The position numbers were made by a program, and so were the translations under genes. DNA of 20,169 bases from a virus. Lineage: Duplodnaviria > Heunggongvirae > Uroviricota > Caudoviricetes. The notes beneath the pieces are model-generated. The model saw only the letters and a list, made by a program, of their open reading frames with translations. It was not told the origin of the DNA and ran no database searches. Each line of letters begins with the position of its first letter. Positions within the stretch are counted from its first letter, which is position 1. The stretch lies in IMG/VR virus record IMGVR_UViG_2879759574_000001. The stretch is one strand, 5' to 3'. Positions 1,012 through 19,794 of this stretch are shown one piece after another.

Positions 1012-1764
1012 TTATCTCGTCACCTTTCTCAATTGTGTTTCAGCATATGCTTCTTCCTGCCAGCACTTTGTTACTAGTTTATCAATTACGTCTGCATATC
1101 CTTTGTACCACTGATAATCAGTCAGGTCTGGAACCAGCTTCTGGACATGACGTCGTGCCAGTGTAGTTGGTAAACGGCTAAACCGGTTTCCATTGCAACG
1201 CCCACAAATCTTATAAACAGGCGTGCCATGAAGCCGGGTCCTTTTTTCATCCAGGACAATACCTTTACCCTTACACCCTCTGCACGCTGTGCTGACTTCT
1301 CCCTTACCATGACAATGCTGACATAGTTCCTTCACCCACTCTTCCTTGATAACAGATTCCCCGCTTCTGGAGTGTTTCACCACCTCGCGCAATACATTAT
1401 GAAATCCAGTACCAGCACAATGCTCACAGCGAGCCTTACTTGCCGCAGACCTAGAATAATCAGCAAAGGCAAAATTCACAAGGTAAGGAATGATCTGTAG
1501 CCGGGTTTCTTCACTCAATTTATTCAATGTCGGGTTATCCAGTGCCATCGCGTAATTGAGCAGACCTTCAATCGCAAACTGAGGATCCTGAACACCAACT
1601 TTTGCCAGGAATAAGGCAAACCCAAGCGGTGCTTTCGACTGCACCATCCCCTGCGCAGCCATCACATCCGTAATCGTTAAACCACCAGAGCCTGTCGCCG
1701 GTGCGTCATCGCTCAGTTTTGGAGATTTCGGGGAGTAATATTTCGGTAAGGCTTCAAGGTTCAT
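1012..1764 (-). CDS. lambdoid antitermination protein Q-like (250 aa, QuuQ/YdfT-like)
   Basis: 250-aa ORF with Cys clusters (CEHCAGTG, CQHCHGKG, CRGCKGKG, CGRCNG); length, zinc-binding motifs and position before a pR'-like promoter match Q-type antiterminators of Qin-like prophages; from memory, not searched. Confidence 0.5.
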   Translation of the reverse strand: MNLEALPKYYSPKSPKLSDDAPATGSGGLTITDVMAAQGMVQSKAPLGFALFLAKVGVQDPQFAIEGLLNYAMALDNPTLNKLSEETRLQIIPYLVNFAFADYSRSAASKARCEHCAGTGFHNVLREVVKHSRSGESVIKEEWVKELCQHCHGKGEVSTACRGCKGKGIVLDEKRTRLHGTPVYKICGRCNGNRFSRLPTTLARRHVQKLVPDLTDYQWYKGYADVIDKLVTKCWQEEAYAETQLRKVTR

Positions 1765-1824
1765 GCTCGTTCTCCACTTACGCCAGTACGCCTATTGCCA
1801 GCGCACGATCGATAAAACGAAATA

Positions 1825-2730
1825 TCAGCTCCAGCTGGGAACCATACTTCTCTTCAAATGCCACGGTATCCGCATGCAGCTCGTCGTGATGCTTTCTGCA
1901 CAAAGGCAACACAAAGAGGTCATGCGCTTTTGTACCCATTCCCCCTGACCGTGGCCTATCAGGTGGAGGGGATCATCAGCAGGCTTTCCACAACATGCAC
2001 ACGGCTGTGTCTTAACCCAGCGTGTGTACTTTTCATTAACCCAGCGGCGACGTTTTGGGCGTAACATAAAAGACTCCGGCGACTCCGGATCCACTTTCAG
2101 CGCCAGCACCTTTTTCACCTTATCCTGGATGATGCTGGTGGCAGGAACCGAAGGCACAAGGTCACTTTCCCGGGTGACAGACGGCACAACAGGCTTCGGT
2201 AATCTCAGTGCCTTACGGGCTGCACTTTCCGGTAAGGCATCCGCCAGGTCATTACGAATCAGCCACCAGCACAGTTCCGGCATTGTCACAACGTGACTAT
2301 CATCAAAACCGAGATCCCGACGCACAACAGACAACACCCAGCGGGCACAGTTATCCGTTGCCATTGATTCCAGCCGTTCCGTGAACTGATCGCGCAGCTG
2401 GTTATCGCAGTGCCAGCACAGACGGATTGCGCCCGGCGCGTGTCGCATTGTTGTCATGTTCTCGCTGTGCCAGTCGGAATGAGGCCACTGGCAGCCTTTT
2501 TCACGAAGTAACCAGCTTTCAAGACATTCCACGCCACCAGCACGACGGATCACTGCCTCATTGCGGAACACGGCCCGAACGTCAGGATCATCCGCCAGCG
2601 GTTGTGATGCCGCCGGAACAGCACCACTGGCGAAAGATGAATAACGTTCCGGCTCAGGCTCCAGCAGGACACGCCCCTGCATAAACAGGGGCATCAGCTC
2701 TGAACCTGGTCTGAACAATACGATCCCCAT
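1825..2730 (-). CDS. DUF968 (YdfU-like) prophage protein
   Basis: 301-aa ORF directly upstream of the Q-like gene as ydfU is in Qin-type prophages; C-terminal Cys/His-rich segment (CACCGKP...HLIGHGQ) consistent with DUF968; the C-terminal tail may be frameshifted. Confidence 0.4.
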   Translation of the reverse strand: MGIVLFRPGSELMPLFMQGRVLLEPEPERYSSFASGAVPAASQPLADDPDVRAVFRNEAVIRRAGGVECLESWLLREKGCQWPHSDWHSENMTTMRHAPGAIRLCWHCDNQLRDQFTERLESMATDNCARWVLSVVRRDLGFDDSHVVTMPELCWWLIRNDLADALPESAARKALRLPKPVVPSVTRESDLVPSVPATSIIQDKVKKVLALKVDPESPESFMLRPKRRRWVNEKYTRWVKTQPCACCGKPADDPLHLIGHGQGEWVQKRMTSLCCLCAESITTSCMRIPWHLKRSMVPSWS

Positions 2731-2771
2731 ACGCGGGCAATTTCAGGGGCAGTAGTGCTCTCACGGTCACC

Positions 2772-2975
2772 TCAATGAACGGTATCGAGCAGCTTTAACA
2801 GCTCAGGGAATCGGGATTCGAAGAAATGCGGCTGCGTCTCACGCGGATTTGCGGGACTGGTGATATTCTTGCCGAACATGCAGCCTTTCGCTGTCAGCGA
2901 CCAGAATTTTTTGATGTTGTTAATCGCTGTACGGCTGTATCGTTCGCGCTGTTCGACGATCCCCAGCTTCGCCAT
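2772..2975 (-). CDS. hypothetical 67-aa protein (possibly the displaced C-terminal segment of the upstream KilA-N gene)
   Basis: ORF only; sits in a different frame immediately downstream of the KilA-N ORF, whose own tail looks non-protein-like. Confidence 0.25.
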   Translation of the reverse strand: MAKLGIVEQRERYSRTAINNIKKFWSLTAKGCMFGKNITSPANPRETQPHFFESRFPELLKLLDTVH

Positions 2976-3031
2976 CTGGTGATATGCCTGATTAGCCGTA
3001 AGGCGGATACCATACTGCTTCAGCAGTGCAC

Positions 3032-3568
3032 TCAGTGACAGCGTGGGCGGCTTGAGCCATCAGGCGCGTCAGCAGGAGCATCAATGGCATAGCGCGGTGC
3101 CAGATTCGGTAAGCCAACAGCCTCCTGGAGTTTCTGACAGGCTCCAAGCACTGAAGAGTTAGACAGGTTTAATTCCCGGCGCATAAAGTCCAGCAGAATC
3201 ACACCAGCCTGCATCTTGTCAGCAGCCTGTCCGGATAATTTTTCCGGTGCACTGGTTACCATGTCGAAAGTACGGATCACCTTCAGATGGAATGACGGGC
3301 TGATCCACATTGCATAGGCATACACCAGTTCTTTGCAGACATACGTCCCTTGGTTATTTCCGCCACGAATAACGTTAACTGGTTCTATATTGACCGAGTT
3401 GCAAATCTGCAACTCGCTTATTAAACGTTCAGTTTGCTCATTGCGGAGCCAGAATGCAGGCTTATGCTTATCCAGAGAACCAGCAGCCCTGTGCAGATCG
3501 TTCAGGCTGTAACGCCCATAAGCATCACGACGAACTTCAATTCCATCAATAACCATCAGATTATTCAT
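3032..3568 (-). CDS. KilA-N domain protein (Roi/antirepressor-like)
   Basis: N-terminus MNNLMVIDGIEVRRDAYGRYSLNDLHRAAG...KPAFWLRNEQTERLI...YAYAMWISPSFHLKVIRTFD fits the KilA-N DNA-binding domain signature. Confidence 0.5.
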   Translation of the reverse strand: MNNLMVIDGIEVRRDAYGRYSLNDLHRAAGSLDKHKPAFWLRNEQTERLISELQICNSVNIEPVNVIRGGNNQGTYVCKELVYAYAMWISPSFHLKVIRTFDMVTSAPEKLSGQAADKMQAGVILLDFMRRELNLSNSSVLGACQKLQEAVGLPNLAPRYAIDAPADAPDGSSRPRCH

Positions 3569-3587
3569 ACTTCGTTTCTCCTCTTAA

Positions 3588-3977
3588 TCAGGCTGCTGCA
3601 CCCGCCGGTTTCTCGTACTTACTGATAGTGATCTCGACCTTCCCTTCCGGGATAACCGGTCCCCACTCCACCAGCATTCTTTTCACCTGACTGTCGTCTT
3701 CCCACACACCCGCGTGGGTCAGGGCGTCAAACAGCGCCTTGTTATAGTTGTTCAGATCGCGGATCCGGTTATCCGGAGGAAACAACACGATCTCCACTGA
3801 AGCAGGTGCCGACGTTGGTTTTGGCAGACGACGTAACTGCTCAACTATTGCTGCACACGCCGCGCTCTGGAATTTGCGCCCCGCTGCGCTTATCAGGCTC
3901 TTACCAGCAAACGCCCCTTTGTTGGGGTGTCGCCAGTACGTGTTCACGCTGGGCGGAAAAGGCAGTATTAGCTTCAT
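3588..3977 (-). CDS. rusA: RusA-family Holliday junction resolvase
   Basis: LPFPPSVNTYWRH...RDLNNYNKALFDALTHAGVWEDDSQV matches the RusA motif pattern (LPWPPS.N.YYRH...RDLDN..KA.FDALT.AG.W.DD.QV); start overlaps upstream stop (ATGA). Confidence 0.85.
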   Translation of the reverse strand: MKLILPFPPSVNTYWRHPNKGAFAGKSLISAAGRKFQSAACAAIVEQLRRLPKPTSAPASVEIVLFPPDNRIRDLNNYNKALFDALTHAGVWEDDSQVKRMLVEWGPVIPEGKVEITISKYEKPAGAAA

Positions 3978-4300
3978 ACTTTCAGGCCCCTCTCATGTAA
4001 CCAGTGGGCTGCACGCAGCTTGGCGTTTTCCTCACCGGCAAGCAGTGAGCGGATAATCCCGACCGCCTCGCTGTCGTCGTCCTTCACCGCGGTATGAAGA
4101 GTGATACCACGGGCCACACCACGCTTTATCGTGATGACGCCTTTTTTCTCCAGTGCTCTAAGATGCTCCACCGCTGCATTCACTGAACGGTATCCCAGCA
4201 TGGTTGCCACCTCCTGATTGGTTGGCGGGAAGCCACGTTCTTTCTGGTAAGAAATCAGCATATCCAGCACCTGCTGCTGGCATTGAGTTAACGTCGTCAT
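3974..4300 (-). CDS. LexA N-terminal DNA-binding-domain-like protein without S24 peptidase domain (108 aa)
   Basis: LTQCQQQVLDMLISYQKERGFPPTNQEVATMLGYRSVNAAVEHLRALEKKGVITIKRGVARGITL aligns at roughly 40 percent identity to my recollection of the E. coli LexA N-terminus ([65 protein letters not shown]); protein ends about 40 aa later with no Ser/Lys protease domain. Confidence 0.6.
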   Translation of the reverse strand: MTTLTQCQQQVLDMLISYQKERGFPPTNQEVATMLGYRSVNAAVEHLRALEKKGVITIKRGVARGITLHTAVKDDDSEAVGIIRSLLAGEENAKLRAAHWLHERGLKV

Positions 4301-4950
4301 GCCGCCATCTCCCTGACAAGTTTTTCTGCCTGCTGGCGAACTTGCGCCAGAAAGGCCTCACCACATGCCTCAAGTTCATCGCGCCCGATGTAGCTGATTG
4401 CCGGTCCCTTCCAGGTCTTGTCGAAAACGGCAATAGCACCAGCGAAGAAAGCACCGGTTGGCACCTGCTTCTCGTCTTTCGGGATAAACCAGGCAGGCAG
4501 TTCAAAACCAATACGCCCGCGAATAAAAGCAATATGATCCGCATCTTCCGGCCACCACACTTCGCTGGTGGCAGCTTTGATCAGGAAAACATAGCGCCCG
4601 CCCTTATCACGCATGGCACTGGCATGTTTCATGATGTAACGCATGCCGGTGATGTATTGCCCCTCATGCTGACTGGCGCGGCTGTATGGAGGATTTCCAA
4701 AGGCAGCACCTTTAAGCTCCGCAAGACGTTCTGACCAGTCATGCGCCAGCGCGTTGTCTTCCGCCGTGTAATACGCGGCACATTTGGCGTTATCACCGTC
4801 AGTAAACAGATCCAGAACAAACGGGCCAAACAGGGTGTTAATTCCCCAGAAAATGTTGTCCGGTGTGCGCCACTGATCGCCCACTTCCTTCAGTTCATGG
4901 GCTGGTTTGTTTCGCAACTCCACCAGCGCCTGGCAATATTTATTACTCAT
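4297..4950 (-). CDS. phage N6-adenine DNA methyltransferase (Dam family)
   Basis: FGNPPYS motif (NPPY catalytic signature), QWRTPDNIFWG N-terminal motif typical of phage Dam; preferred start is ATG at 4950 (MSNKYCQ), overlapping the upstream stop (TAATG); the track start at 4983 is a GTG. Confidence 0.75.
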   Translation of the reverse strand: MSNKYCQALVELRNKPAHELKEVGDQWRTPDNIFWGINTLFGPFVLDLFTDGDNAKCAAYYTAEDNALAHDWSERLAELKGAAFGNPPYSRASQHEGQYITGMRYIMKHASAMRDKGGRYVFLIKAATSEVWWPEDADHIAFIRGRIGFELPAWFIPKDEKQVPTGAFFAGAIAVFDKTWKGPAISYIGRDELEACGEAFLAQVRQQAEKLVREMAA

Positions 4951-5438
4951 TAAGCCCCCACGTAATTCCCTGACAGATACCACTCATCACCCGATACAGC
5001 GCGCTTGCTGCTTTTCCGTAAGCACCGCTCACGACGCGCCAGAAAATTGTTTCGTTCTGGCTGGGAGTGGCTTTCACGGAATGCCGCCATCCACACCGTT
5101 GCAGCACGACGGTATAAGCCCCTGGACTCCAGTTCTTCAGCCTGGCGGGTCAGGCACAAAATCACCCGGGGATCGTTAGTGCCGACATAGAAATTGCGCA
5201 CAGGTCTGGTTTCTCGAACTGATTGTGGTCCCGGTTCCTGCGCTCTCTCAGTCAGGCGCGGGAAATGTCTGCGTGTATCTCCTTCACAACGGTGAGCCAC
5301 ACGCCCACTCTGACGTAACTTGCTTGCAGACTGCAGAACGCGCTGCCGTGAGTAACCTGCAAAAGCATCCGCAATGTCTCCGGAAGTACACCCCGGATGG
5401 GCTTCAATGAATTTCTGAACGTCATTCAAAAGACTCAT
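4950..5438 (-). CDS. YfdN-like protein with C-terminal PerC-like motif (163 aa)
   Basis: Start set at ATG 5438 (MSLLNDVQKF...); the longer track ORF has a low-complexity N-extension overlapping the rep gene. C-terminal AEELESRGLYRRAATVWMAAF shares the PerC-type motif with the ORF at 9181-9462. Confidence 0.45.
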   Translation of the reverse strand: MSLLNDVQKFIEAHPGCTSGDIADAFAGYSRQRVLQSASKLRQSGRVAHRCEGDTRRHFPRLTERAQEPGPQSVRETRPVRNFYVGTNDPRVILCLTRQAEELESRGLYRRAATVWMAAFRESHSQPERNNFLARRERCLRKSSKRAVSGDEWYLSGNYVGA

Positions 5439-6006
5439 GCTCACCCCTGAATCCTGCCGGGATCTGGCTGTAGTCCACGTTGTCGTAACTGGCTTTGAAG
5501 TACGGGTCTTCACGTTTTTCTGTGTGCGTGCAGACGGACGGCGATAAGCGCAGGGAAAGCTCATCCCATTTTTCCCGCAACTTCGACGGGCTGAGCACGT
5601 TACGGCACCAGAACGGATCGCGGCTGACGCGGCTGTACATCTCGCAGATTTGTTTGTGAGTACGGCCATCCTGTACACACATCAGGCGAATTTCGTTTGC
5701 CCAGGCTGTCCAGTTCGGTTCTTTGGGACGAACCACCTCGCCGTCACATTCGGCAGCCTGCTCGTACAGGGCGATGATTTTTTTCCAGAGCCACTGTGCG
5801 CAGGTCAAATCATCCTGCGTCCCCCACTGGCGCTTTTTAGGGCTGAATACAACCGCATCAGGATGGCGAGTTAAAAAATCCTGTTCAGCCGTCTGCGTGT
5901 CCGGTTGCGAAGCGTCCGGACGAGAAGGTTTTTTATCTGACGGATCATGTTTTGATTTTACTGACGGATCCCCGCCAGATTCTGACGGGTGAAAACCCGC
6001 TTTTTT
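5422..6006 (-). pseudogene. 3' portion of phage replication-initiation gene, separated from its 5' portion (13478-13860) by IS66
   Basis: Frame continues in phase from 13860 across the 8-bp duplication: ...SKSGKKA | GFHPSESGGDPSVKSKHDPSDKK...; the track start at 6021 is a TTG inside the IS66 end. Confidence 0.65.
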
Positions 6007-6043
6007 GTAAGCGTGCAGCAAGAACCGTATTGACGGGGATGTG

Positions 6044-7580
6044 TTATTCAGTCGGCAGTGCTACGCGCCAGGGGAGCAGTTCGCCGACCCGGTTTATCGG
6101 CCAGTCGGCTATGACGTCAAGTACATAGCGGAGGTAGCTTTCTGGCTCCACTCCGTTCAGTTTGCACGTCCCGATCAGGCTGTACAGCAGCGCTCCCCGC
6201 TCTCCTCCATGATCCGAACCGAAGAACAGGTAGTTTTTGCGGCCCAGACTGACCATCCGCAACGCATTTTCAGCGATGTTATTGTCCGCCTCAGCCCAGC
6301 CATCATCTGCATAGTACGTCAGCGCCGGCCACTGGTTCAGGGCGTATGCGAACGCTTTCGCCAGTTCTGAGTGTCGCGACAGGGTTTTCATCTTTTCACG
6401 CAGCCAGCTTTCCAGGGATTTCAGCAGCGGTTTCGTTTTCAACTGACGTTCGGCAAGGCGCTGCTCCGCCGTCATTCCCCTTATCTCTGCCTCGATGGCG
6501 TACAGTTCGCCGATCCGTTTCAGCGCTTCCTCCGTCAGGGCTGACGGGGTGCGAACGTGCACATCGTGGATTTTACGGCGGGCGTGAGCCCAACAGGCGG
6601 CTTCCGTTATCCGGCCATCCCGGTACAGCTCGTTGAACCCGGCGTATGCATCCGCCTGCAGTACACCACTGAACCCCGCAAGATGGGTCTGCGGATGGAT
6701 GCCTTTTCTGTCCGGGCTGTAAGCGAACCACACCGCCGGCGCCAGCGTTGACCCGGCGTTACGGTCGTCACGAACGTAGGTCCATAACCGCCCGGTCTTC
6801 GTTTTCTTATTGCCTGGCAACAGCACCGGGACAGGCGTGTCATCAGCATGGAGCTTACCGTCAGTCAGCACATAGTCCTGAAGCGCTTCTTCCAGCGGTG
6901 ACAGTAGCCGGCAGCATGCATCCACCCAGCCCGACAGCAGTGAACGACTCAGCTCCACGCCCTGGCGGCCGTACATTTCAGACTGGCGGTACAGCGGGGT
7001 GTGCTCTGCATACTTTGAGATCAGCACGCGGGCCAGCAGCCCCGGTCCTGCGATACCCCGCTCGATGGGCCGTGAAGGCGCGGGGCCTGCACGATGGCAT
7101 CGCACTGAGTACAGGCATGCTTTTCACGTACAGTCCGGATAACCCGGAAGACGCTGCGCATCAACTCCAGCTGTTCGGCGGCATCCTCACCCGGATAGCT
7201 CAGTGAGCCTCCACATTCCGGGCAGCATGACGCTGCCGGCAGCAGCCGTTTTTCATCGCGGGGGAGTGATTCGGGAACGGTTTGCGGGTGCGGGTTTGAC
7301 GCAGCGGGCGCTGCACGGCCGGGTCGTCAACCCGACCGGTAAGGGTATCACTTTCTTTCTGAAGTGCCTTCAGGTCAGCTTCCATCTGTGCGATACGACG
7401 GGAGACTTTTTCGGAGCGGCTGCCGAAGTTCATCCGGCGCAGCTTATCCAGCTGTGCCTGCAGATGGTCTATTTCGCGTTCACGCTCGTTCAGCTTTTCC
7501 AGCAGGGCACGGTTCAGCGCCTCCTGTTCGGCAAGGAGACGTTTCAGTGCATTGATATCGTCAGGAAGTGAGCTGCTCAT
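6044..7580 (-). pseudogene. IS66 tnpC (transposase) disrupted by two 1-bp deletions
   Basis: Split into ORFs 7200-7580 and 6044-7105; compared with intact copy 2, one G/C is missing in the homopolymer run at 7273-7275 and one in the run at 7082-7085. Confidence 0.8.
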
Positions 7581-7628
7581 ACCGGGTATATTACCAGGCT
7601 CATTCAGCGTCGACCAGGATAAAGAGGC

Positions 7629-7976
7629 TTACAACATAGTCAGGGACGTAAGCAGTCTTTTAGGCTGCCGCCAGTCGATACCTTCAAGGAGCATCGCCAG
7701 CTGTGCCGGTGTGAGGAACACTTTGCCATCCCGGGCTGACGGCCAGGCGAAGCGGCCGCGCTCCAGCCGTTTGGTCAGCAGACACAGTCCATCGCCGGTA
7801 GACCAGAGGAGCTTTACCTGACTGCCATTACGCCCACGGAAGATAAAAACGTGACCTGACATCGGATCGTCTTTCAGCGTCGTCTGCACCTTTGCCGCCA
7901 GGCCGTTGAAGCCATTTCTCATATCGGTGATACCGGCAACCAGCCAAATTTTGGTCCCGGAAGGTAACGGGATCAT
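7629..7976 (-). CDS. IS66 TnpB (Orf2), 115 aa
   Basis: Identical protein to ORF 14329-14676; typical IS66 orf2 position with ATGA overlap to tnpA. Confidence 0.85.
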   Translation of the reverse strand: MIPLPSGTKIWLVAGITDMRNGFNGLAAKVQTTLKDDPMSGHVFIFRGRNGSQVKLLWSTGDGLCLLTKRLERGRFAWPSARDGKVFLTPAQLAMLLEGIDWRQPKRLLTSLTML

Positions 7977-8374
7977 CGCTTCAGTTCCTGTATCAGCAGA
8001 GTCAGGAGCTTTTCGCTGACATTGCCATTGAAGCGGAGCGTCCCGTGCCGGAACGTTACCTCACAGCTGATACTGAGGGTTTCCGGATCCTCTGCGAGCG
8101 ATTCTGGCTGTTCGGCAGCTGCATCGAGAGTCACAGGAAGTAGCTGGGGGCTCTCTGAAGAAGGTAATAGCAGCTTTCCCTCGCGCCATTGTTGTCGCCA
8201 TTTGAACAACAGATTGGCGTTAATGCCATTTTCAAGAGCAAGTTTTGAGATGGATATCCCGGGTTCACAGGAGGCAGCAACGAGCTGCTGTTTAAATTCG
8301 GGAGGATAATTAGGGCAGCCTTTTCGCCTGCCGGGATTCACATTTTTCTGCATATCTGACACTTTGGTTCCCAC
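7973..8374 (-). CDS. IS66 TnpA (Orf1), 133 aa, intact in this copy
   Basis: 133-aa ORF; the copy-2 counterpart is broken into 80-aa and 78-aa ORFs by a 1-bp deletion. Confidence 0.8.
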   Translation of the reverse strand: MGTKVSDMQKNVNPGRRKGCPNYPPEFKQQLVAASCEPGISISKLALENGINANLLFKWRQQWREGKLLLPSSESPQLLPVTLDAAAEQPESLAEDPETLSISCEVTFRHGTLRFNGNVSEKLLTLLIQELKR

Positions 8375-8465
8375 TACTTATTTGGTGGACACCACTTTGT
8401 CTAATTCGTCAGATTCTGACCAGACGGTTCAGGCTGTACGCTTACTTTCCAATGGGCACTCATGT

Positions 8466-8909
8466 TTATACGCTGACCTTACAATCAATCACCGCTTTTA
8501 AATTTTCAGCATTGCTTCCCTGACGCTTCCACGCGCTGTAAATATCTTTATCCCACGCTTTACCAGCTTTTGTTTGATAGCCTGCTTCATTGATCCGTTC
8601 AGCTATCACACGCCCATTATCAAATCCCTGTTGGATGGTATCGGCAATGATCTTTATAACTGCCGTTTCGTTATATGGCTTTGGTGGGATGTTCGGCTTT
8701 CCGGCAATAAGCGACGCAGCGGCTTTTTCCATGCGCTCCACCAGCCCAAGCATTCGTGAATCAATAGACTTTTCCGGCTGTCCCAGCTTCATGCGAATCG
8801 CATCAACAAGCCAGGAGGTTTTATCCCCTCCAGAAGCGAGAACAGACCGATTAAACTCATCCTGCAATTCAGATGGGATGCGGAACGCGATCAGATTAGA
8901 TTTGCTCAT
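8466..8909 (-). CDS. hypothetical DNA-binding protein, putative ribbon-helix-helix N-terminus
   Basis: MSKSNLIAFRIPSELQDEFNRSVLASGGDKTSWLVDAIRMKL has a strand-helix-helix pattern like Arc/CopG-type RHH; divergent from the iteron array and PerC-like gene; start ambiguous (ATG 8921 or 8909), weak RBS. Confidence 0.35.
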   Translation of the reverse strand: MSKSNLIAFRIPSELQDEFNRSVLASGGDKTSWLVDAIRMKLGQPEKSIDSRMLGLVERMEKAAASLIAGKPNIPPKPYNETAVIKIIADTIQQGFDNGRVIAERINEAGYQTKAGKAWDKDIYSAWKRQGSNAENLKAVIDCKVSV

Positions 8910-8940
8910 TGCAAAGACCATATCAGTGAGTAATATCCAT

Positions 8941-8970
8941 ACAGTATACCACTGTATAACACTGTTATAC
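8941..8970. repeat. three tandem ~10-bp repeats ACAGTATAC / CACTGTATAA / CACTGTTATAC in the promoter region of the RHH-like gene
   Basis: Direct reading of sequence; half-site-like CTGT/ACAG elements but not a canonical CTGT-N8-ACAG LexA box. Confidence 0.3.
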
Positions 8971-9022
8971 GCTCAAATATCAGCCAGAAAATAACGGACC
9001 AATCACAAAGCTATCGCTGTGT

Positions 9023-9145
9023 TGTTGGTTCAGAGCTGGGCTGTGTTGGTTCAAAATGAGTTGATGTTGGTTCAATATTTTAGAAAAAACATAATAAAAA
9101 CAACGATCTTTACAAATTGAACCAACTGAACCAACTGAACCAACA
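9023..9145. repeat. iteron array: 3 direct TGTTGGTTCA repeats at 21-bp spacing, AT-rich spacer, then 3 tandem inverted copies TGAACCAAC
   Basis: Direct copies at 9023-9032, 9044-9053, 9065-9074; inverted copies at 9118-9126, 9127-9135, 9136-9144; the inverted set overlaps the -35 region of a TATAAT (9162-9167) upstream of the PerC-like gene. Confidence 0.6.
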
Positions 9146-9180
9146 CCTTTTTGCTTATCTATATAATCTGAGAGGCAGAA

Positions 9181-9462
9181 ATGATAAGGGACAGGAAAGC
9201 TGAAGAGCTGGAGTCAAAAGGGCTATACCGGAGAGCTGCCGCACGATGGATGGAAGTCATGCTGTTATGCACCGAGGACGATGATCGGGAATGGATAAAG
9301 CGCCGCCGTGAAACGTGTCTGGAGAACGTGAAGCGCCCGCCCGTGAAGGTTGAGGAATTTGGCGACCTGCATAAAGCTGTTACCGAAACGCAACACCGCA
9401 TGGGGATAGCGCAACCGAACGGTAACGCCTTCCGGTTAAATGGCGGCAAGAGGCAAAGGTAG
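9181..9462 (+). CDS. PerC-family transcriptional activator-like protein (93 aa)
   Basis: MIRDRKAEELESKGLYRRAAARWMEVML...RRRETCLENV matches the PerC/Pch signature as I recall it; good RBS (GAGAGG) before ATG. Confidence 0.5.
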   Translation: MIRDRKAEELESKGLYRRAAARWMEVMLLCTEDDDREWIKRRRETCLENVKRPPVKVEEFGDLHKAVTETQHRMGIAQPNGNAFRLNGGKRQR

Positions 9463-9758
9463 ACCACCAGAGGGAAATCATCCTCTGGCTGGCGGTTTCT
9501 GGTATTTCGGGACAAGTACGCGCGCGCGTAGCACCCAATCGGTGAGGAAATAGCGGCGACCTGAATGGTCAAAATCACAACGCAGCTATCCCCGTAAGCA
9601 GCGCTTAACGGAATAGCAGTAACCTGAATCCAGTGGGGAGGGGGTAGTCAAATCTCTACAGCCCTGACTATCCGGGACTGCCCGCCCATCGTTTTTTTAT
9701 ACCCGCGAAAAATGAAATTTAATCCGGGCGTGTTTCATCCTTCCAGAGGGTATGACGT

Positions 9759-9944
9759 ATGACACCACGCGAAATAGCCTTATTGACCATCGCCAAACTT
9801 GAGCACGGAGGCCACCAGCTTACACAGGCAGATCAACGGGAGATAGAACGATCAGTTAATGCCGATATAGCCCGGCGCGACAGGTTCCGCGAAATGATGC
9901 GAGCACCTGCCTACCAGTGGAAGAAGCCAGCGCCGCGCAGGTAG
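9759..9944 (+). CDS. hypothetical 61-aa basic protein
   Basis: ORF with possible RBS AGAGGG upstream; no recognisable motif. Confidence 0.25.
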   Translation: MTPREIALLTIAKLEHGGHQLTQADQREIERSVNADIARRDRFREMMRAPAYQWKKPAPRR

Positions 9945-10064
9945 ATATGGGATTATTCCACATGTACCTTATGCGTATTAAGCAAATTTCCTTTATTCAC
10001 CTTTACAGAATTGTGAGTACGTCAGTATCGTTATCCTTCCGATTCGCATTTATTCAGGATTTGC

Positions 10065-10607
10065 ATGTACCAGCTAAAGATAACCATCCGAGACAGCAAA
10101 CCACCTATATGGCGGCGTGTGCTGGTTCCAGAGCAAATCCCCTTTAGTAAACTTCATGCCGTGATCCAGTTAGCTTTTGGCTGGAATGACGAACACCTGT
10201 ATATGTTCGAGAAAGGGCGTAAAGGTGATCCAGGTAGCGAGTATCGCGTATGGGGTGAGGATGAAAGCATGGGTAACGCGGCAATCACGCCACTATGGGC
10301 GGCGCTCCAGAATGAGGGTGACAAGCTGGTTTACACGTATGACTTTGGCGACTGGTGGGATTGCGTCATTGTGCTGGAGAAGCAAACACACGATACGAGT
10401 AATCAGCCCATTAGCTGCCTGCGTGGGAAAGGCACCACCCCGGCGGAAAACTCAGGCGGCTTGCATGGTTACAATGAATTGCTATTACAGGCCAGAGAGT
10501 CTGATAATCCTGAGCAGGCCGAGATCCACAATTTCCTGATGCTGGATATTGAACGCCGGGTTTACGACCTGAGCCGCATCAACGACAGATTGCAGGCTAT
10601 TAACTGA
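10065..10607 (+). CDS. pRiA4b ORF-3-like family protein (180 aa)
   Basis: N-terminus MYQLKITIRDSKPPIWRRVLVPEQIPFSKLHAVIQLAFGWNDEHLYMF matches the characteristic start of the pRiA4b ORF-3-like family (YxLKxTL...PPIWRR..VP...F.DLH..IQ...GW...HL.F); RBS AGGA present. Confidence 0.6.
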   Translation: MYQLKITIRDSKPPIWRRVLVPEQIPFSKLHAVIQLAFGWNDEHLYMFEKGRKGDPGSEYRVWGEDESMGNAAITPLWAALQNEGDKLVYTYDFGDWWDCVIVLEKQTHDTSNQPISCLRGKGTTPAENSGGLHGYNELLLQARESDNPEQAEIHNFLMLDIERRVYDLSRINDRLQAIN

Positions 10608-10959
10608 CCCGCATGTATTCACCTGATATTGCGTTGTCAGCGCCGCCAGTATCGCGCATAACAGCGCACTGACCGGGTAAACCGTAGCGCACGACCGTTG
10701 CGTTAGTATCACCGCCGCGCCGTATCTGGCGCGATTCATACACTGTCACCCGCTCAAGCAGTCCACCAGCAACCATGCTTTCCAGTGTGCGCCGGGTTGA
10801 TTCGAGCTGGTGACGCTTATCGAACGACACCATGCCATGAAGCAGGTAGGCCACACCCGACACATCGAACGGCGGCGCACCAATCTCACCAGTCACCCAT
10901 TCGAGGTTATCCGGTTCAAAGTAGCTAAGTATCTCTTTTTTGCGACTGGTCATTCTCAT
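10600..10959 (-). CDS. hypothetical 119-aa protein, convergent with and overlapping the pRiA4b-like gene by 8 nt
   Basis: ORF with RBS AAGGA; segment RTLESMVAGGLLERV could be a winged-helix recognition element, but that is unverified. Confidence 0.3.
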   Translation of the reverse strand: MRMTSRKKEILSYFEPDNLEWVTGEIGAPPFDVSGVAYLLHGMVSFDKRHQLESTRRTLESMVAGGLLERVTVYESRQIRRGGDTNATVVRYGLPGQCAVMRDTGGADNAISGEYMRVS

Positions 10960-11187
10960 GGCTGGCTGATTCCTTATTGTGGGATAGCACTATCATACAA
11001 TAAGTGGGTTAAAGGGAGAGCGTTACCGCCTGATATGCTGTATGAATAACAACCAAATTTCAGGGGCGGAAAAAGATATGGGGGTACTTTTGGGGGTATC
11101 TATAAAAAATGAACAATAAAAAAGGCAACAAAAACAAAGCTTATCGCCTATGTGTATTGTTCCCATTATCCCATTTAAATCAATAAG

Positions 11188-11691
11188 TTACACATCATTA
11201 GTACGTTCCTTATTTCTTGACTGGGACAAATTTGGGACCGATGGGTTCAGAATCGAGTCTATTTGCCGTGCGTGTTCGGTAAGGTGATTAGGTGCGAGGT
11301 GAGCATATCGACGAACCATTTCGATAGACTCCCAGCCTCCCATTTCCTGTAACACTGATAACGGGACTCCGGCTTGAACCAGCCAACTTGCCCAGGTGTG
11401 TCTCAAGTCGTGAAATCTGAAATCATCAATACCTGCTCGTCTCAGCGCCGCTTTCCAGGCTGTGTTTGCGTCATACCGCATCTTCCTGACTGTTGGCGCT
11501 TTCGTTCCGTCTGGTTTGGTACAGCTTTCCTTATACACAAATACCCAACGGTGATGATTCCCGATTTGTTTTTTCAATACGCGACATGCAGTATCATTCA
11601 GCGCAACGCCAATTGCGCGGTTTGATTTACTCTCTTCCGGGTTTATCCATGCCACCCGGTGAGGTGTACTGGCAATAGCGGACACTACCAT
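11188..11691 (-). pseudogene. tyrosine recombinase (phage integrase), C-terminal catalytic half only
   Basis: Contains HDLRHTWAS (His-x-x-Arg box) and VRRYAHL (catalytic Tyr); the N-terminal roughly 200 aa expected for an integrase are absent and the ORF abuts an IS3-family fragment. Confidence 0.75.
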
Positions 11692-11699
11692 TTGTTCTT

Positions 11700-12221
11700 T
11701 TTTTAAGCAGCCATCTGATGATATTTTTCCCTGAAGGCTGCCGGGGAGATATTCCCCAGACGAGAGTGACGACGCTGACGATTGTAGAAAATCTCAATGT
11801 ATTCCCGTATTACTGAGATGGCTTCATCCCGGTTATTAAAACGATAGTGGCTCAGGCTCTCATTTTTCAGCGTCCCCAGAAGCTTTCCATCGGAGCGTTG
11901 TCGTAACAGTTACCTTTACGCGACATTGATGTTTTCAGACCAGACTGCTCCTGTATGACCCGGTAATCGTATGCGCAGTACTGTGAACCTCGATCAGAGT
12001 GGTGGATTAGCCCGGCAGGTGGGCGCTGGCTCCTGAGCGCCATAAACAGGGCTTTACCTGTCAGCTCTTTTGTCATGCGCTCTCCCATGGCGTAGCCGAC
12101 AATTTCGCACGTATAAACATCTTTGATGCCAGCGAGGTACAACCATCCCTCCTGTGTGGCAACATACGTCAGGTCCGCCACCCAGACCTGATTTGGTGCT
12201 GTAGGAGCGAACGTCTGGTTC
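11700..12221 (-). pseudogene. IS3-family (IS407-group-like) transposase OrfB, 3' fragment with internal frameshift, truncated by IS911
   Basis: ...HHSDRGSQYCAYDY...MSRKGNCYDNAPMESFW then, in another frame, [56 protein letters not shown]; the 5' side ends exactly at the IS911 left end (12222). Confidence 0.6.
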
Positions 12222-12293
12222 TGAAGTGGCACACTGAATTTGGCCACCTGAACAGAGGTGATATGCTCACCTCAGAACAACACAGGTGCTCCA

Positions 12294-13861
<1,568 letters not shown>

Positions 13862-13931
13862 TAAGCGTACAGCCTGAACCGTCTGGTCAGAATCTGACGA
13901 ATTAGACAAAGTGGTGTCCACCAAATAAGTA

Positions 13932-14332
13932 GTGGGAACCAAAGTGTCAGATATGCAGAAAAATGTGAATCCCGGCAGGCGAAAAGGCTGCCCTAATTAT
14001 CCTCCCGAATTTAAACAGCAGCTCGTTGCTGCCTCCTGTGAACCCGGGATATCCATCTCAAAACTTGCTCTGAAAATGGCATTAACGCCAATCTGTTGTT
14101 CAAATGGCGACAACAATGGCGCGAGGGAAAGCTGCTATTACCTTCTTCAGAGAGCCCCCAGCTACTTCCTGTGACTCTCGATGCAGCTGCCGAACAGCCA
14201 GAATCGCTCGCAGAGGATCCGGAAACCCTCAGTATCAGCTGTGAGGTAACGTTCCGGCACGGGACGCTCCGCTTCAATGGCAATGTCAGCGAAAAGCTCC
14301 TGACTCTGCTGATACAGGAACTGAAGCGATGA
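13932..14332 (+). pseudogene. IS66 tnpA with 1-bp deletion
   Basis: CTTGCTCTGAAAATGG here versus CTTGCTCTTGAAAATGG in copy 1; ORF split into 13932-14174 and 14096-14332. Confidence 0.75.
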
Positions 14333-14676
14333 TCCCGTTACCTTCCGGGACCAAAATTTGGCTGGTTGCCGGTATCACCGATATGAGAAATGGCTTCAAC
14401 GGCCTGGCGGCAAAGGTGCAGACGACGCTGAAAGACGATCCGATGTCAGGTCACGTTTTTATCTTCCGTGGGCGTAATGGCAGTCAGGTAAAGCTCCTCT
14501 GGTCTACCGGCGATGGACTGTGTCTGCTGACCAAACGGCTGGAGCGCGGCCGCTTCGCCTGGCCGTCAGCCCGGGATGGCAAAGTGTTCCTCACACCGGC
14601 ACAGCTGGCGATGCTCCTTGAAGGTATCGACTGGCGGCAGCCTAAAAGACTGCTTACGTCCCTGACTATGTTGTAA
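14329..14676 (+). CDS. IS66 TnpB (Orf2), 115 aa
   Basis: Identical to 7629-7976. Confidence 0.85.
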   Translation: MIPLPSGTKIWLVAGITDMRNGFNGLAAKVQTTLKDDPMSGHVFIFRGRNGSQVKLLWSTGDGLCLLTKRLERGRFAWPSARDGKVFLTPAQLAMLLEGIDWRQPKRLLTSLTML

Positions 14677-14724
14677 GCCTCTTTATCCTGGTCGACGCTG
14701 AATGAGCCTGGTAATATACCCGGT

Positions 14725-16263
14725 ATGAGCAGCTCACTTCCTGACGATATCAATGCACTGAAACGTCTCCTTGCCGAACAGGAGGCGCTGAACCGTGCCC
14801 TGCTGGAAAAGCTGAACGAGCGTGAACGCGAAATAGACCATCTGCAGGCACAGCTGGATAAGCTGCGCCGGATGAACTTCGGCAGCCGCTCCGAAAAAGT
14901 CTCCCGTCGTATCGCACAGATGGAAGCTGACCTGAAGGCACTTCAGAAAGAAAGTGATACCCTTACCGGTCGGGTTGACGACCCGGCCGTGCAGCGCCCG
15001 CTGCGTCAAACCCGCACCCGCAAACCGTTCCCCGAATCACTCCCCCGCGATGAAAAACGGCTGCTGCCGGCAGCGTCATGCTGCCCGGAATGTGGAGGCT
15101 CACTGAGCTATCCGGGTGAGGATGCCGCCGAACAGCTGGAGTTGATGCGCAGCGTCTTCCGGGTTATCCGGACTGTACGTGAAAAGCATGCCTGTACTCA
15201 GTGCGATGCCATCGTGCAGGCCCCCGCGCCTTCACGGCCCATCGAGCGGGGTATCGCAGGACCGGGGCTGCTGGCCCGCGTGCTGATCTCAAAGTATGCA
15301 GAGCACACCCCGCTGTACCGCCAGTCTGAAATGTACGGCCGCCAGGGCGTGGAGCTGAGTCGTTCACTGCTGTCGGGCTGGGTGGATGCATGCTGCCGGC
15401 TACTGTCACCGCTGGAAGAAGCGCTTCAGGACTATGTGCTGACTGACGGTAAGCTCCATGCTGATGACACGCCTGTCCCGGTGCTGTTGCCAGGCAATAA
15501 GAAAACGAAGACCGGGCGGTTATGGACCTACGTTCGTGACGACCGTAACGCCGGGTCAACGCTGGCGCCGGCGGTGTGGTTCGCTTACAGCCCGGACAGA
15601 AAAGGCATCCATCCGCAGACCCATCTTGCGGGGTTCAGTGGTGTACTGCAGGCGGATGCATACGCCGGGTTCAACGAGCTGTACCGGGATGGCCGGATAA
15701 CGGAAGCCGCCTGTTGGGCTCACGCCCGCCGTAAAATCCACGATGTGCACGTTCGCACCCCGTCAGCCCTGACGGAGGAAGCGCTGAAACGGATCGGCGA
15801 ACTGTACGCCATCGAGGCAGAGATAAGGGGAATGACGGCGGAGCAGCGCCTTGCCGAACGTCAGTTGAAAACGAAACCGCTGCTGAAATCCCTGGAAAGC
15901 TGGCTGCGTGAAAAGATGAAAACCCTGTCGCGACACTCAGAACTGGCGAAAGCGTTCGCATACGCCCTGAACCAGTGGCCGGCGCTGACGTACTATGCAG
16001 ATGATGGCTGGGCTGAGGCGGACAATAACATCGCTGAAAATGCGTTGCGGATGGTCAGTCTGGGCCGCAAAAACTACCTGTTCTTCGGTTCGGATCATGG
16101 AGGAGAGCGGGGAGCGCTGCTGTACAGCCTGATCGGGACGTGCAAACTGAACGGAGTGGAGCCAGAAAGCTACCTCCGCTATGTACTTGACGTCATAGCC
16201 GACTGGCCGATAAACCGGGTCGGCGAACTGCTCCCCTGGCGCGTAGCACTGCCGACTGAATAA
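14725..16263 (+). CDS. IS66 TnpC transposase, intact (512 aa)
   Basis: Uninterrupted 512-aa ORF with N-terminal coiled-coil/leucine-zipper region and CxxC...CxxC zinc motif (CCPECGG...CTQCDA). Confidence 0.85.
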
Positions 16264-16300
16264 CACATCCCCGTCAATACGGTTCTTGCTGCACGCTTAC

Positions 16301-16382
16301 CGATATCCTCGATATAAATATCGTCAATGGTGGAGTTGATATAATTGAACTTCTTACCGGTAAGAGTCTGGATAAAACTCAT
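16301..16382 (-). pseudogene. 5' stub (first 27-28 codons, MSFIQTLTGKKFNYINSTIDDIYIEDI) of an unknown gene truncated by the IS66 right end
   Basis: Strong RBS AAGGAGA 7 nt before ATG at 16382; frame runs directly into the IS66 inverted repeat. Confidence 0.35.
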
Positions 16383-16539
16383 CGTTAGTTCTCCTTAATT
16401 GGTGCGCTGCACCGCACGATTTTTGGTTGCACGAATCCCTCGCCATAAGGCGATTAAAAGTTTTGGTTTCGTTTCAGTAAATGCCCCATCCAGAGGCACT
16501 TAGTGCAACGGGCGGCTGCCATCGCCAGTTATTTTCCCC

Positions 16540-16624
16540 ACTCAATTGAAAGCGCGTTCCGGAGGTTTTGGACTTAACGAACTGGCACTTAATGACAAGG
16601 GACAGAACGCGCTTTCAGTTGAGT
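16540..16624. repeat. 20-bp inverted repeat (19/20 match) separated by a 45-nt spacer
   Basis: Left arm ACTCAATTGAAAGCGCGTTC (16540-16559), right arm GAACGCGCTTTCAGTTGAGT (16605-16624); not followed by a T-tract on either strand. Confidence 0.5.
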
Positions 16625-16775
16625 AAAAAGGTGGCTATTCATCAGAACATTGTCGCCTTCATTAGGTTTATCTGTTGAAGATCTGTAAGCCGCTTATAAA
16701 TAAGTAGATATAAGATATTAGGAAAAGAAGAAGGACGTTATAGTTTTATTTGTGATGTGCAAAGTATATTTGAAT

Positions 16776-16796
16776 AGAACCCGCCCAGCGGGTTCT
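16776..16796 (-). terminator. 9-bp GC-rich stem-loop overlapping the stop codon of the 201-aa gene (weak terminator candidate)
   Basis: AGAACCCGC-CCA-GCGGGTTCT; no clear U-tract afterwards. Confidence 0.3.
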
Positions 16797-17400
16797 AAAG
16801 TGTTTTAATGATTGTCGTGATAATTAATTGGCTCATCATTTTTTGGTCTGGTATAGTTATGGACCACTTTATATTCTTTAGGCTGTTATGTTTTTTATTG
16901 ACCTTAAGCTCTCTCTTTGCTTCAGAGATAATATCGTCTAGTAATACTTTTAATTTATCAAGTCTTGACTTGTGGGCATCTATCAACTCTATACTATCAA
17001 ACTCCCATTGTATAAATAGATTTTCTTCATTTTCAATGAATGAACGGATTTTATCCCCACACTCTTCTGTTAAGAATAATGAAGATAGCTCACCTATTCT
17101 ACTGAGTTTTTCAAGCTCATTAGAGAAAGATTTGCTAAGGATTTCATTTTCTTCTTTTGATTTGTAACTAAAGTAGGTTGGGAATTGTGAAGCGTGATGT
17201 AACTCATGTTTATACCAATAGTCAGCTGTGTTTTTTAGAAGATAAACACAGTCAACTAATTGCGTATACAAATCTATTCTTTTGTCCCACCATTTTTCTT
17301 TATAATAACGGCCGAGTGCATATCGCGCAGTTAAGTAAGCTGCGATTGAGCCTGTAACAAGTCCGATAATTACCTTTGATATAAGGTCATGCCAATCCAT
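16795..17400 (-). CDS. hypothetical membrane-anchored protein (201 aa, one N-terminal TM helix, AT-rich)
   Basis: ORF MDWHDLISKVIIGLVTGSIAAYLTARYAL... has a single hydrophobic helix followed by a charged, Lys/Glu-rich soluble region; codon usage and base composition are clearly more AT-rich than neighbours; RBS AGGA. Confidence 0.5.
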   Translation of the reverse strand: MDWHDLISKVIIGLVTGSIAAYLTARYALGRYYKEKWWDKRIDLYTQLVDCVYLLKNTADYWYKHELHHASQFPTYFSYKSKEENEILSKSFSNELEKLSRIGELSSLFLTEECGDKIRSFIENEENLFIQWEFDSIELIDAHKSRLDKLKVLLDDIISEAKRELKVNKKHNSLKNIKWSITIPDQKMMSQLIITTIIKTL

Positions 17401-17852
17401 TTTTATTTTTCCTACATTATGTTATATAATTGTTCATATCATACAATTGTTGAGTATAGATGTCTCGTTATTCATCAACATTTACTCCTGTTAAATTAGG
17501 GGGAGTATGTATTAAAAATATTCATCTGGGTCGTCTAAATATTTTTGATAAACTAATAGCAATAACACTATCAGTATTGCCTGCCCTCACGTCGTTCTTG
17601 CTCTCGCGCGATTTTTAACTAAACACTAGCAGGATTTATCATGGTGCTACGCTACATTTACTTGTAGGGAGCTAAACAGATCATTGACGCTGAAAATATT
17701 CAAATTGTTAAAGAGCGAAGCGTCCTATGGGCGTTTTGTTGCTAACGAATCATCTTGGACTTCATATGCTCCAGGCGGCTACTTCGTGGGCATCCTGCCT
17801 GTTTGTTGTTTCGTTTTGGTACATTGTGTGTCCATGGGTACATTGTCAAGTA

Positions 17853-17876
17853 TAAAAAAACCTGCCGAAGCAGGTT
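17853..17876 (-). terminator. rho-independent terminator downstream of the cI-like gene
   Basis: Minus strand AACCTGC-TTCG-GCAGGTT followed by TTTTTTTA. Confidence 0.6.
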
Positions 17877-17888
17877 CATAAATATTGA

Positions 17889-18563
17889 TTAGGCCTTTAT
17901 TTTGTATCTTCTTGGTTTTCCCGAGAAAATCACAGTGCCAATTATAGAGCAATTACCGTTAATCTTAATGTAGGGCTCAGGCCAGTTTGGGTGTAATGCT
18001 TTGAGATAACGCTGTGTTCCATCTTCTATCAATCGCTTGAAGGTGATTTCGCCTGTATCGTGCATCAACGCAATAACGTCGTCACCGTGGCAAGCAGGGA
18101 CTTCAGGATCAACAAAAATCATGTCTCCCGGACGGTACTCATCAATCATTGAATCACCAATCACCCGCAAGATATAAGTCATTTCGCCACAGGGTACAGG
18201 GCAGGGATAAGTTTCTGCTGTGCTCAAATCAACCTCAGAATAGCCAACTTCTTTCCATGCTCCGGCCTGTACCCATGATATGACAGGGACTAACGTTATT
18301 TGTTTGTTAGTGATTGAAACATCAGGTTTTTTTGTGATGTTCGTTGTCTGGTGTTCTTGATCGAGCCATCCGATAGGCAAGTCGAAACATTTTTCAATGT
18401 GTCGTGCCATGCTGTCACCGATATTTTTAGTAGCACCATCTCCCATAAACCTGCTGGTCTGGGTTGGCTCGCGATCAATCATAGTGGCAAAGGAAGAATT
18501 CCCGCCAACACCATCTCTCAGTTTTCTGGCGTTAGACCGCCGGATGTCATGGATTGTTTTCAT
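17889..18563 (-). CDS. CI-like phage repressor with C-terminal S24 (LexA-type) peptidase domain
   Basis: C-terminal half has VIGDSM (catalytic Ser) and FKRL (Lys) with ...GDMIFVDPE...; N-terminus resembles phage CI HTH domains; divergent from a Cro-like gene. Confidence 0.8.
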   Translation of the reverse strand: MKTIHDIRRSNARKLRDGVGGNSSFATMIDREPTQTSRFMGDGATKNIGDSMARHIEKCFDLPIGWLDQEHQTTNITKKPDVSITNKQITLVPVISWVQAGAWKEVGYSEVDLSTAETYPCPVPCGEMTYILRVIGDSMIDEYRPGDMIFVDPEVPACHGDDVIALMHDTGEITFKRLIEDGTQRYLKALHPNWPEPYIKINGNCSIIGTVIFSGKPRRYKIKA

Positions 18564-18580
18564 AACGAAATTAAAACCCT

Positions 18581-18647
18581 TGTACCGCTAAGGTACAAGT
18601 ATCTTGAAGGTTCATTTCAATCATGTAACATGTACACTTGAGGTACA
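18581..18647. promoter_or_regulatory. divergent cI/cro control region with two TGTAC-N7-GTACA palindromic operator candidates
   Basis: TGTACCGCTAAGGTACA (18581-18597) and TGTACACTTGAGGTACA (18631-18647) lie between the cI start (18563) and cro start (18654). Confidence 0.45.
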
Positions 18648-18653
18648 TATTGT

Positions 18654-18854
18654 ATGAAAGCGTATTGGGACTCTTTAACCAAAGAACAGCAGGGTGAGTT
18701 GGCCGGAAAAGTTGGCTCAACACAAGGCTACTTACGGCTGGTTTTCAATGGCTATAAAAAAGCCAGTTTTGTGCTGGCTAAAAAACTTGAGCAATGCACG
18801 TCAGGTGCAATTACGAAATCTGACTTAAGACCGGATATCTATCCGAAAGATTAG
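18654..18854 (+). CDS. Cro-like small HTH regulator (66 aa)
   Basis: Position divergent from cI; STQGYLRLVFNGYKKASFVLAKKLEQCTSGAITKSDLRPDIY resembles Cro/YdaS-type proteins. Confidence 0.55.
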   Translation: MKAYWDSLTKEQQGELAGKVGSTQGYLRLVFNGYKKASFVLAKKLEQCTSGAITKSDLRPDIYPKD

Positions 18855-18885
18855 CAGAACACTTTCAATTTTTAACCACAGAACG

Positions 18886-19455
18886 ATGAGGCTAATCGTG
18901 GGTAAGCATCACTGGAAAATAGAAAAACAGCCTGAGTGGTACGTGAAAGCTGTCAGAAAAACTATCGCAAAGTTGCCGGGTGGTTACGCTGAAGCGGCTG
19001 ACTGGCTCGATGTAACAGAAAACGCTTTATTCAACCGCCTTCGTGCAGATGGCGATCAGATTTTCCCGCTGGGATGGGCAATGGTTTTACAGCGTGCTGG
19101 TGGCACTCACTTCATTGCTGATGCTGTGGCGCAGTCTGCAAATGGCGTCTTTGTGTCTCTTCCTGACATCGAGGATGTGGACAACGCCGATATTAACCAG
19201 CGTCTGCTGGAAGTCATTGAACAGATCGGCAGTTATTCAAAACAGATTCGTTCAGCAATCGAAGACGGTGTAGTGGAACCGCATGAGAAGACAGCAATTA
19301 ACGACGAGCTGTATCTCTCAATTTCGAAGCTGCAGGAGCATGCAGCACTTGTCTACAAAATTTTTTGCATTTCAGAAAGTAATGACGCCCGCGAGTGTGC
19401 AGCTCCGGGCGTCGTGGCGTCGATTGCTTCTGGTTGTGGAGAAACTAACGCATGA
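18886..19455 (+). CDS. CII-like/early regulatory protein (tentative)
   Basis: Position right after cro; 189-aa ORF; start uncertain (ATG 18886 has a poor RBS, GTG 18898 has GAGG upstream); family assignment is from weak recollection only. Confidence 0.3.
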
Positions 19456-19790
19456 ACAGTTTAACAACACACTACCGTCGCTCGCAACTGATTGCGCTTT
19501 CTGTACCGGGTGGAAAAGCGAAGGTGGAATATTGCTATGCAGTGAATGTACCAGGTGACAGGGAAATTGTAACCCACAGCTTTGCAGAGTGGGCTGTGGG
19601 TGATTTCAACCGGCAGAAGGAGACAGTCCTTTGCGACAAGTTAACCGCTGGTTCAAAGATCACTACGGAGTGCCCGTCAGAGTCATTCGTTGGGAGCCGG
19701 AAACACAACGGGTTATCTACCTCCGCGGAGGTTATGAGCATGAATGCTTCAGTCCGCTCGAACAGTTTCGTCGTAAATTCAGGGAAATAG
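19452..19790 (+). CDS. hypothetical protein; likely frameshifted, with an alternative frame open to the IS911 junction
   Basis: Annotated frame ends [32 protein letters not shown]; the -1 frame reads [53 protein letters not shown] and looks more protein-like. Confidence 0.3.
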
Positions 19791-19794
19791 AGGT

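Follow-up and report, generated by a model that had tools for sequence, protein, structure and literature searches.

The window analysed here is a 20,169-nucleotide stretch of DNA catalogued as IMG/VR virus record IMGVR_UViG_2879759574_000001, a lambdoid prophage remnant fragmented by insertion sequences (ISs), whose source contig is NCBI CP026842.1 (4.59 Mb). Within it a phage replication gene, rep, is split into two parts that lie on opposite strands, each against a different copy of one IS66-family element. Most probably, this element inserted into rep, after which the DNA between it and a second, inverted copy was flipped by recombination between the two. Directly visible are the split gene, the duplicated target and a sister genome in which the flip is the sole difference.

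In the proposed course of events, a 2,441-bp ISEc22-type IS66 element would have inserted into the O-like rep gene of a degraded lambdoid prophage, duplicating the 8-bp target AAAAAAGC, with a second and essentially identical copy situated 5.4 kb away in the inverted orientation. Recombination between the 2.4-kb inverted copies would then have flipped the 5,415-bp segment at 8446-13860, leaving the 5' and 3' parts of rep on opposite strands, each by a different IS copy, and the two 8-mers inverted with respect to one another. The features concerned are the following.

5422-6006, minus strand: 3' part of rep, its true stop probably near 5440
5999-6006, minus strand: the 8-bp target duplication in its copy beside IS66 copy 1, GCTTTTTT (gene strand: AAAAAAGC)
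6007-8445, minus strand: IS66-family (ISEc22-like) copy 1, with its right end at 6007 and its left end at 8445
13478-13860, plus strand: 5' part of rep, comprising the winged-helix HTH_36 N-terminus and an iteron-like repeat region
13853-13860, plus strand: second copy of the 8-bp target duplication, AAAAAAGC
13861-16300, plus strand: IS66-family (ISEc22-like) copy 2, with TnpB (115 amino acids) and TnpC (512 amino acids) intact

AAAAAAGC (13853-13860) adjoins the left end of IS66 copy 2 and its reverse complement GCTTTTTT (5999-6006) adjoins the right end of copy 1, exactly where a preliminary description of the window had placed them; the chance of two given 8-mers being reverse complements of each other is about 1.5e-5. 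That description also held that the two parts form a continuous frame across a single 8-mer. Joining 13478-13860 to the reverse complement of 5422-5998 indeed produces a 960-nt, 319-codon open reading frame (ORF; ...SKSGKKAGFHPSESGG...), the entire length of which (100%) aligns in one piece, with an identity of up to 99.5%, to intact annotated genes. Intact rep genes hold a single copy of the 8-mer, and 1,576 Escherichia coli genomes cover at least 80% of the joined gene. Of the limits given earlier for the 3' part, 6006-5422, the start is correct and the stop is not. The stop at 5422 results from the loss of 1 bp in a homopolymer at 5443, seen in no assembly but the source, and the true stop probably lies near 5440, which would give a protein of 313 amino acids as in intact homologues.

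The unflipped arrangement is found in a sister genome, PSSQ01000001.1 (PSSQ), the locus of which was merged from two exact-protein look-up loci overlapping by 3,338 identical bases. Read in the orientation of the window, it runs gcl, hyi', IS1, Q...rep3', IS66-A, rep5', IS911 and an IS600 fragment, followed by a 3.8-kb segment termed M (reversed), IS66-B, the cI block and IS911. IS66-A has GCTTTTTT as a direct repeat on both sides and lies between rep5' and rep3' in a collinear array on one strand, which argues for a simple insertion in rep. IS66-B is inverted, 5.4 kb off, and flanked by ATTGGAAA and CGATATCC, the pair that is unmatched in the window. The alignment between the two genomes falls into three blocks (PSSQ in merged coordinates).

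Window 1-8445: PSSQ 10001-18452, collinear, 99.8%
Window 6007-16300: PSSQ 26300-16012, reversed, 99.7%
Window 13861-20169: PSSQ 23860-30170, collinear, 99.9%

The orientation of a 5,415-bp segment is the sole difference in arrangement between them; the breakpoints lie inside the IS copies, and nothing has been gained or lost. An insertion with an 8-bp duplication, followed by a 5.4-kb inversion, had been proposed from the window. The flip is confirmed by PSSQ, whereas the precedence of the insertion is something we infer, and host homologous recombination would be the cause of the flip.

The flipped linkage, rep3'-IS66-M, occurs in nine assemblies counting the source. The eight others (CP026834.1, CP026823.1, PSST01000003.1, UYIT01000003.1, CP026807.1, CP026840.1, CP026805.1 and CP045784.1) are collinear with window 1-13469 at 99.7-99.8%. 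Short-read contigs break off precisely at the IS boundaries, which is the behaviour expected of repeats. In CP026805.1, an extra IS110-family element (13249-14768; corresponding to window ~8441-8445) is inserted where the IS66 left end meets M, and CP026840.1 fits a later deletion, in the flipped state, between two direct IS911 copies. Exact-protein look-ups with the IS911-rep5' fusion, with rep5' alone and with the yfdR'-IS66 junction ORF, each of which a single residue change is enough to break, returned just the source or a 496-bp contig. None of 5,426 complete E. coli genomes carried the rep::IS66 junction, and it was not found in a scan of species-representative genomes.

The ancestral order of the prophage can be recovered by concatenating 16301-19794 (block S1), 13473-13860 (S2) and the reverse complement of 1-5998 (which takes in S3). 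This reconstruction matches the intact prophage of E. coli ECONIH4 as a single 9,014-bp high-scoring segment pair (HSP) at 98.2%, and for each of the two rebuilt junctions the 40-mer spanning it is found there without mismatch. Thus, the rep halves were once contiguous, with one 8-mer, and the cI-cro-cII-DUF4222 block once directly preceded rep. A comparison with prophages carrying an uninterrupted rep gene, suggested by the preliminary description as a check, therefore comes out in its favour, with the halves aligning contiguously.

The reconstruction also accounts for one of the two remaining IS66 flanks. As was originally observed, TTTCCAAT at 8446 is no match for CGATATCC at 16301. The latter position falls 82 nt inside the yfdR-like HD-hydrolase gene of the prophage itself, which explains the unmatched flank there, and the other flank (8446) falls in segment M. 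The earlier conclusion that the second copy did not arise by simple insertion is strengthened by PSSQ, in which the unmatched ATTGGAAA / CGATATCC flanks are already present in the unflipped state. With its right end adjoining the prophage yfdR-like gene and its left end adjoining a satellite-island remnant, the second copy is, to judge from these neighbours, the product of earlier IS-mediated events. The flipped segment itself contains satellite-island and integrase remnants, an IS600 fragment, IS911 and rep5', and not the phage DNA next to rep.

The two IS66 copies form inverted repeats with arms at 6007-8445 (2,439 bp) and 13861-16300 (2,440 bp), the element being 2,441 bp in length. The arms differ solely by three 1-bp homopolymer indels: copy 1 has lost two C's from tnpC homopolymers (near 7086 and 7276) and copy 2 one T in tnpA (near 14070). 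The copy ends begin GTAAGCGT; the left end is GTAAGCGTACAGCC and the right end, reverse-complemented, is GTAAGCGTGCAGCA, with terminal inverted repeats of the GTAAGCG type. TnpC matches PF03050 (E = 7e-107), PF13817, PF13007 and PF13005, as a DDE_Tnp_IS66 transposase, while TnpB matches PF05717 and TnpA matches PF01527. Over 2,440 bp the element is 99.7% identical to E. coli copies labelled 'IS66-like element ISEc22 family' by the Prokaryotic Genome Annotation Pipeline. By its sequence, it is an IS66-family element of the ISEc22 type, and every family feature looked for was found: it shares with ISEc22 and its relatives ISEc8, IS679 and IS66 the tnpA/tnpB/tnpC genes, Pfam domains, ends, 8-bp target duplication and size of 2,441 bp. 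There is no difference in kind from the family, although both copies in the source assembly are frameshifted by 1-bp homopolymer indels, which are probably consensus errors.

Several observations weigh against the order of events favoured here. The four junctions between IS ends and flanks are identical in both orientations, and the flanks alone cannot therefore order the events. A small single-nucleotide polymorphism (SNP) tree, built over rep3'-Q and M from ten assemblies and few sites, places PSSQ (collinear), PSST01000003.1 (PSST; flipped) and CP026840 (flipped) in one group and the source with six flipped assemblies in the other. Flipped genomes are thus found in both clades, with the single collinear genome beside flipped ones, and parsimony roots the sample in the flipped state, implying either at least two flips or that the flipped state came first. 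Only in the source assembly is rep5' seen linked through IS66 to the cI block, the complementary arrangement. Finally, no informative site distinguishes the two IS66 copies of the window, which leaves the crossover point unmappable; a single site (alignment column 1573), in PSST, weakly fits the chimera expected from recombination. PSSQ and PSST differ by 3 substitutions in ~8 kb, so at least one flip must be recent. It is conceivable, if rather improbable, that the segment flips repeatedly in this lineage, possibly giving a mixed population in each culture, or else that the arrangement had a one-step, replicative intramolecular origin.

In its explicit form, the one-step route has the pre-existing copy, that with the ATTGGAAA / CGATATCC flanks, transposing replicatively into rep in inversion mode, PSSQ being a later flip-back. 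On paper a single such event creates the second copy, inverts the 5.4 kb and leaves the 8-bp duplication inverted; judged from the flanks, it would give exactly the four junctions of the window, including the pairing of IS ends with flanks, and it needs one event fewer to reach the state of the window. The distribution of flipped and collinear genomes over the SNP clades is also in keeping with it. The same anatomy of inverted copies, inverted segment and inverted target duplication is produced by the intramolecular replicative inversions of Tn3, Mu and IS26; however, a replicative pathway is not established for IS66, and here a collinear sister with a direct duplication exists. The IS66 family is not known to have a cointegrate or a replicative pathway. 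Moreover, flips between 2.4-kb inverted repeats are cheap, so that parsimony weighs little, and the SNP tree rests on a handful of SNPs. It is on these three grounds that insertion into rep followed by recombination is favoured, and we consider the one-step route unlikely.

An assembly artefact, in which the wrong flanks were joined across the 2.4-kb repeat, is very unlikely. The many 1-bp homopolymer deletions in the source assembly suggest an unpolished long-read consensus, and the linkage of rep5' through IS66 to cI is confined to that assembly. However, eight further independent assemblies also show the linkage of rep3' through IS66 to M, at 99.7-99.8%, and the type of read suggested by the errors easily spans a 2.4-kb repeat. 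If one linkage is real, the two flanks left over have to be joined either to one another or to additional copies. A programmed invertible switch bounded by the IS copies is scarcely credible: orientation is polymorphic among very close relatives such as PSSQ and PSST, but neither an invertase gene nor a short recombination site is present, beyond IS911 and a gene fragment the segment holds nothing but degraded island DNA, the prophage is without an integrase N-terminus, rep or late genes, and no flanking gene is a candidate for orientation-dependent expression.

The interrupted gene matches a phage O-like replication initiator. Residues 1-313 of the joined protein align with positions 1-298 of the 298 in PHROG 391, 'replication initiation O-like' (E = 7e-135), and its N-terminus is an HTH_36 winged helix. 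The gene order in intact prophages is cI, cro, ymfL, DUF4222, rep, PerC ... Q, which places rep in the lambdoid early-right operon, behind cro and the cII-like gene. The centre of rep (13760-13860 and 5900-5998) holds GTCA(A/G)AAT(C/T)TG(A/G) repeats ~15 bp apart that resemble origin iterons, and the IS66 insertion falls in an A-rich spacer between these iteron-like repeats. The left end of IS66 (13861-13900) contains GTCAGAATCTGAC, which resembles the rep repeat; chance or a target preference could be responsible. Lambda O-type initiators (PHROG 391) show the same full profile match and N-terminal winged helix and occupy the same place, after a cII-like gene and before nin-like genes; the internal array of iteron-like repeats may be a further likeness. 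The rep gene described here differs from them in being split into two non-functional pieces, and any replication origin within it is putative. The group includes the defective yfdO of the K-12 prophage CPS-53.

A second, separate rearrangement, overlooked by the preliminary description, accounts for the distance between rep5' and the cI-cro-cII block. IS911 is inserted 6 bp upstream of the rep start codon, and its 3-bp duplication, GGT, is split between two direct copies (19792-19794 and 13470-13472). From this split, it is an IS911-mediated event that moved the cI-cro-cII block away from rep5'. The remaining IS911 flanks, tested as a 3-bp duplication, do not pair (TTC with TCC in the source, TTC with GTT in PSSQ), indicating still more IS911 events. 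An open frame at 12623-13864 continues IS911 orfB into rep5', and gene callers report it as a chimeric 351-amino-acid 'rve + HTH_36' protein; this protein is, almost certainly, no more than an artefact of annotation created by IS911 having inserted 6 bp before the start codon.

The remaining features of the window are listed below.

1-105, plus strand: hyi 5' fragment, cut by IS1; an ORF at 1-132 begins 13 nt past gcl in the source contig
106-873: IS1 (768 bp), marking where the prophage remnant ends on the left, with 768-bp matches to IS1 copies; homology to intact prophages stops at ~874
874-5998, minus strand: prophage block S3, within the single 9,014-bp HSP (98.2%) to the intact ECONIH4 prophage
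8446-12221: segment M, 3.8 kb, including the IS600 fragment
8446-11691, plus strand: the part of M made up of a P4-like satellite-island end and a thrW-prophage integrase C-terminal fragment
11188-11691, minus strand: the integrase C-terminal fragment of a thrW prophage, within M
11692-12221, minus strand: IS600 fragment truncating the integrase gene and itself cut by IS911, 99.8% to annotated IS600
12222-13469, plus strand: IS911 copy 1, 99.8% to annotated IS911
13470-13472, plus strand: GGT, one half of the IS911 3-bp target duplication
16301-19794, plus strand: prophage block S1, 100% coverage and 98.1% to intact prophages
19792-19794, plus strand: GGT, the other half of the IS911 target duplication
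19795-20169, plus strand: IS911 copy 2, which runs past the window end, its 375 nt identical to copy 1

By their Pfam labels, the genes of S3 are the rep 3' part, PerC, Dam, LexA-like, RusA, KilA-N, DUF968 and antiterminator Q, and the block is inverted with respect to the cI-cro block. S1 holds the first 82 nt of the yfdR-like HD-hydrolase gene (minus strand, cut by IS66), a 201-amino-acid ORF and a cI-like repressor (minus strand), together with cro-like, YmfL/cII-like and DUF4222 genes. The ORFs of M comprise a 151-amino-acid ORF, a PerC-like and a pRiA4b ORF-3-like ORF and a 119-amino-acid ORF. Other assemblies have its 167-amino-acid integrase fragment, without a single difference, immediately next to thrW-proA, the site at which intact relatives of the prophage are integrated. 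The satellite island of M stands in tandem with a lambdoid prophage at thrW in E. coli relatives, and full-length IS600 occupies the position equivalent to 11692-12221 in other assemblies.

In the source contig, gcl, allR, allA, allS and selU lie to the left of the window, and a truncated ecp operon lies to its right, after IS911 copy 2. The load of insertion sequences, chromosome sizes of 4.3-4.8 Mb and the decay of the ecp, gcl and allS genes suggest a Shigella-type chromosome. IS1, IS600, IS911 and IS66 all sit at synteny breaks, and the window separates the gcl region from the ecp operon. The hyi'-IS1 junction (window 1-873) is common to many related assemblies in which its right-hand partner varies between phage Q, folD and allF, and this stretch is a hotspot for IS1 rearrangement. 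Collectively, the hybrid flanks of the second IS66 copy, the split GGT, the unmatched IS911 flanks and the joining of gcl to ecp point to several further IS-mediated events. A full multi-step history was drafted (six insertions, several inversions and one deletion); it is not unique and is not claimed. With its integrase truncated, its rep gene split and its late genes replaced by IS1 and the hyi fragment, the prophage is dead, and the flip is consequently without evident function.

All indels of the source assembly with respect to its sisters are 1-bp homopolymer deletions, mostly in runs of G or C. They are located at 1940, 2734, 2745, 3044 and 5443, in IS66 copy 1 near 7086 and 7276, and in copy 2 near 14070, and they create apparent frameshifts in DUF968, KilA-N, the rep 3' end, tnpC and tnpA. 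These are probably uncorrected errors of a long-read consensus and not real pseudogenes.

The rearrangement is an ordinary one, already known in kind, and the chromosome around it is dense with insertion sequences. Among the rearrangements of Shigella chromosomes, inversions driven by ISs predominate, and 103 of the 114 inversions reconstructed were on Shigella branches (Seferbekova et al. 2021, PMC8072062). The recombination between inverted IS copies that flips the intervening DNA in Shigella and IS-rich Escherichia (PMC8072062) is the same; the flip here, however, spans 5.4 kb inside a dead prophage and not a megabase across the replication axis.

The locus thus provides a clean, documented case of an IS inactivating and then scrambling a prophage in an IS-rich chromosome of the Escherichia/Shigella type, with an intact prophage and an unflipped sister genome both serving as checks on the logic of the flanks. 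It also calls for caution in annotation, as gene callers return a chimeric IS911-rep ORF along with two rep fragments, and the orientation of the segment may serve as a marker separating close strains. No new biological question is opened unless the one-step replicative route for IS66 is true; in that event, it would be the first indication of a replicative pathway for an IS66-family element.

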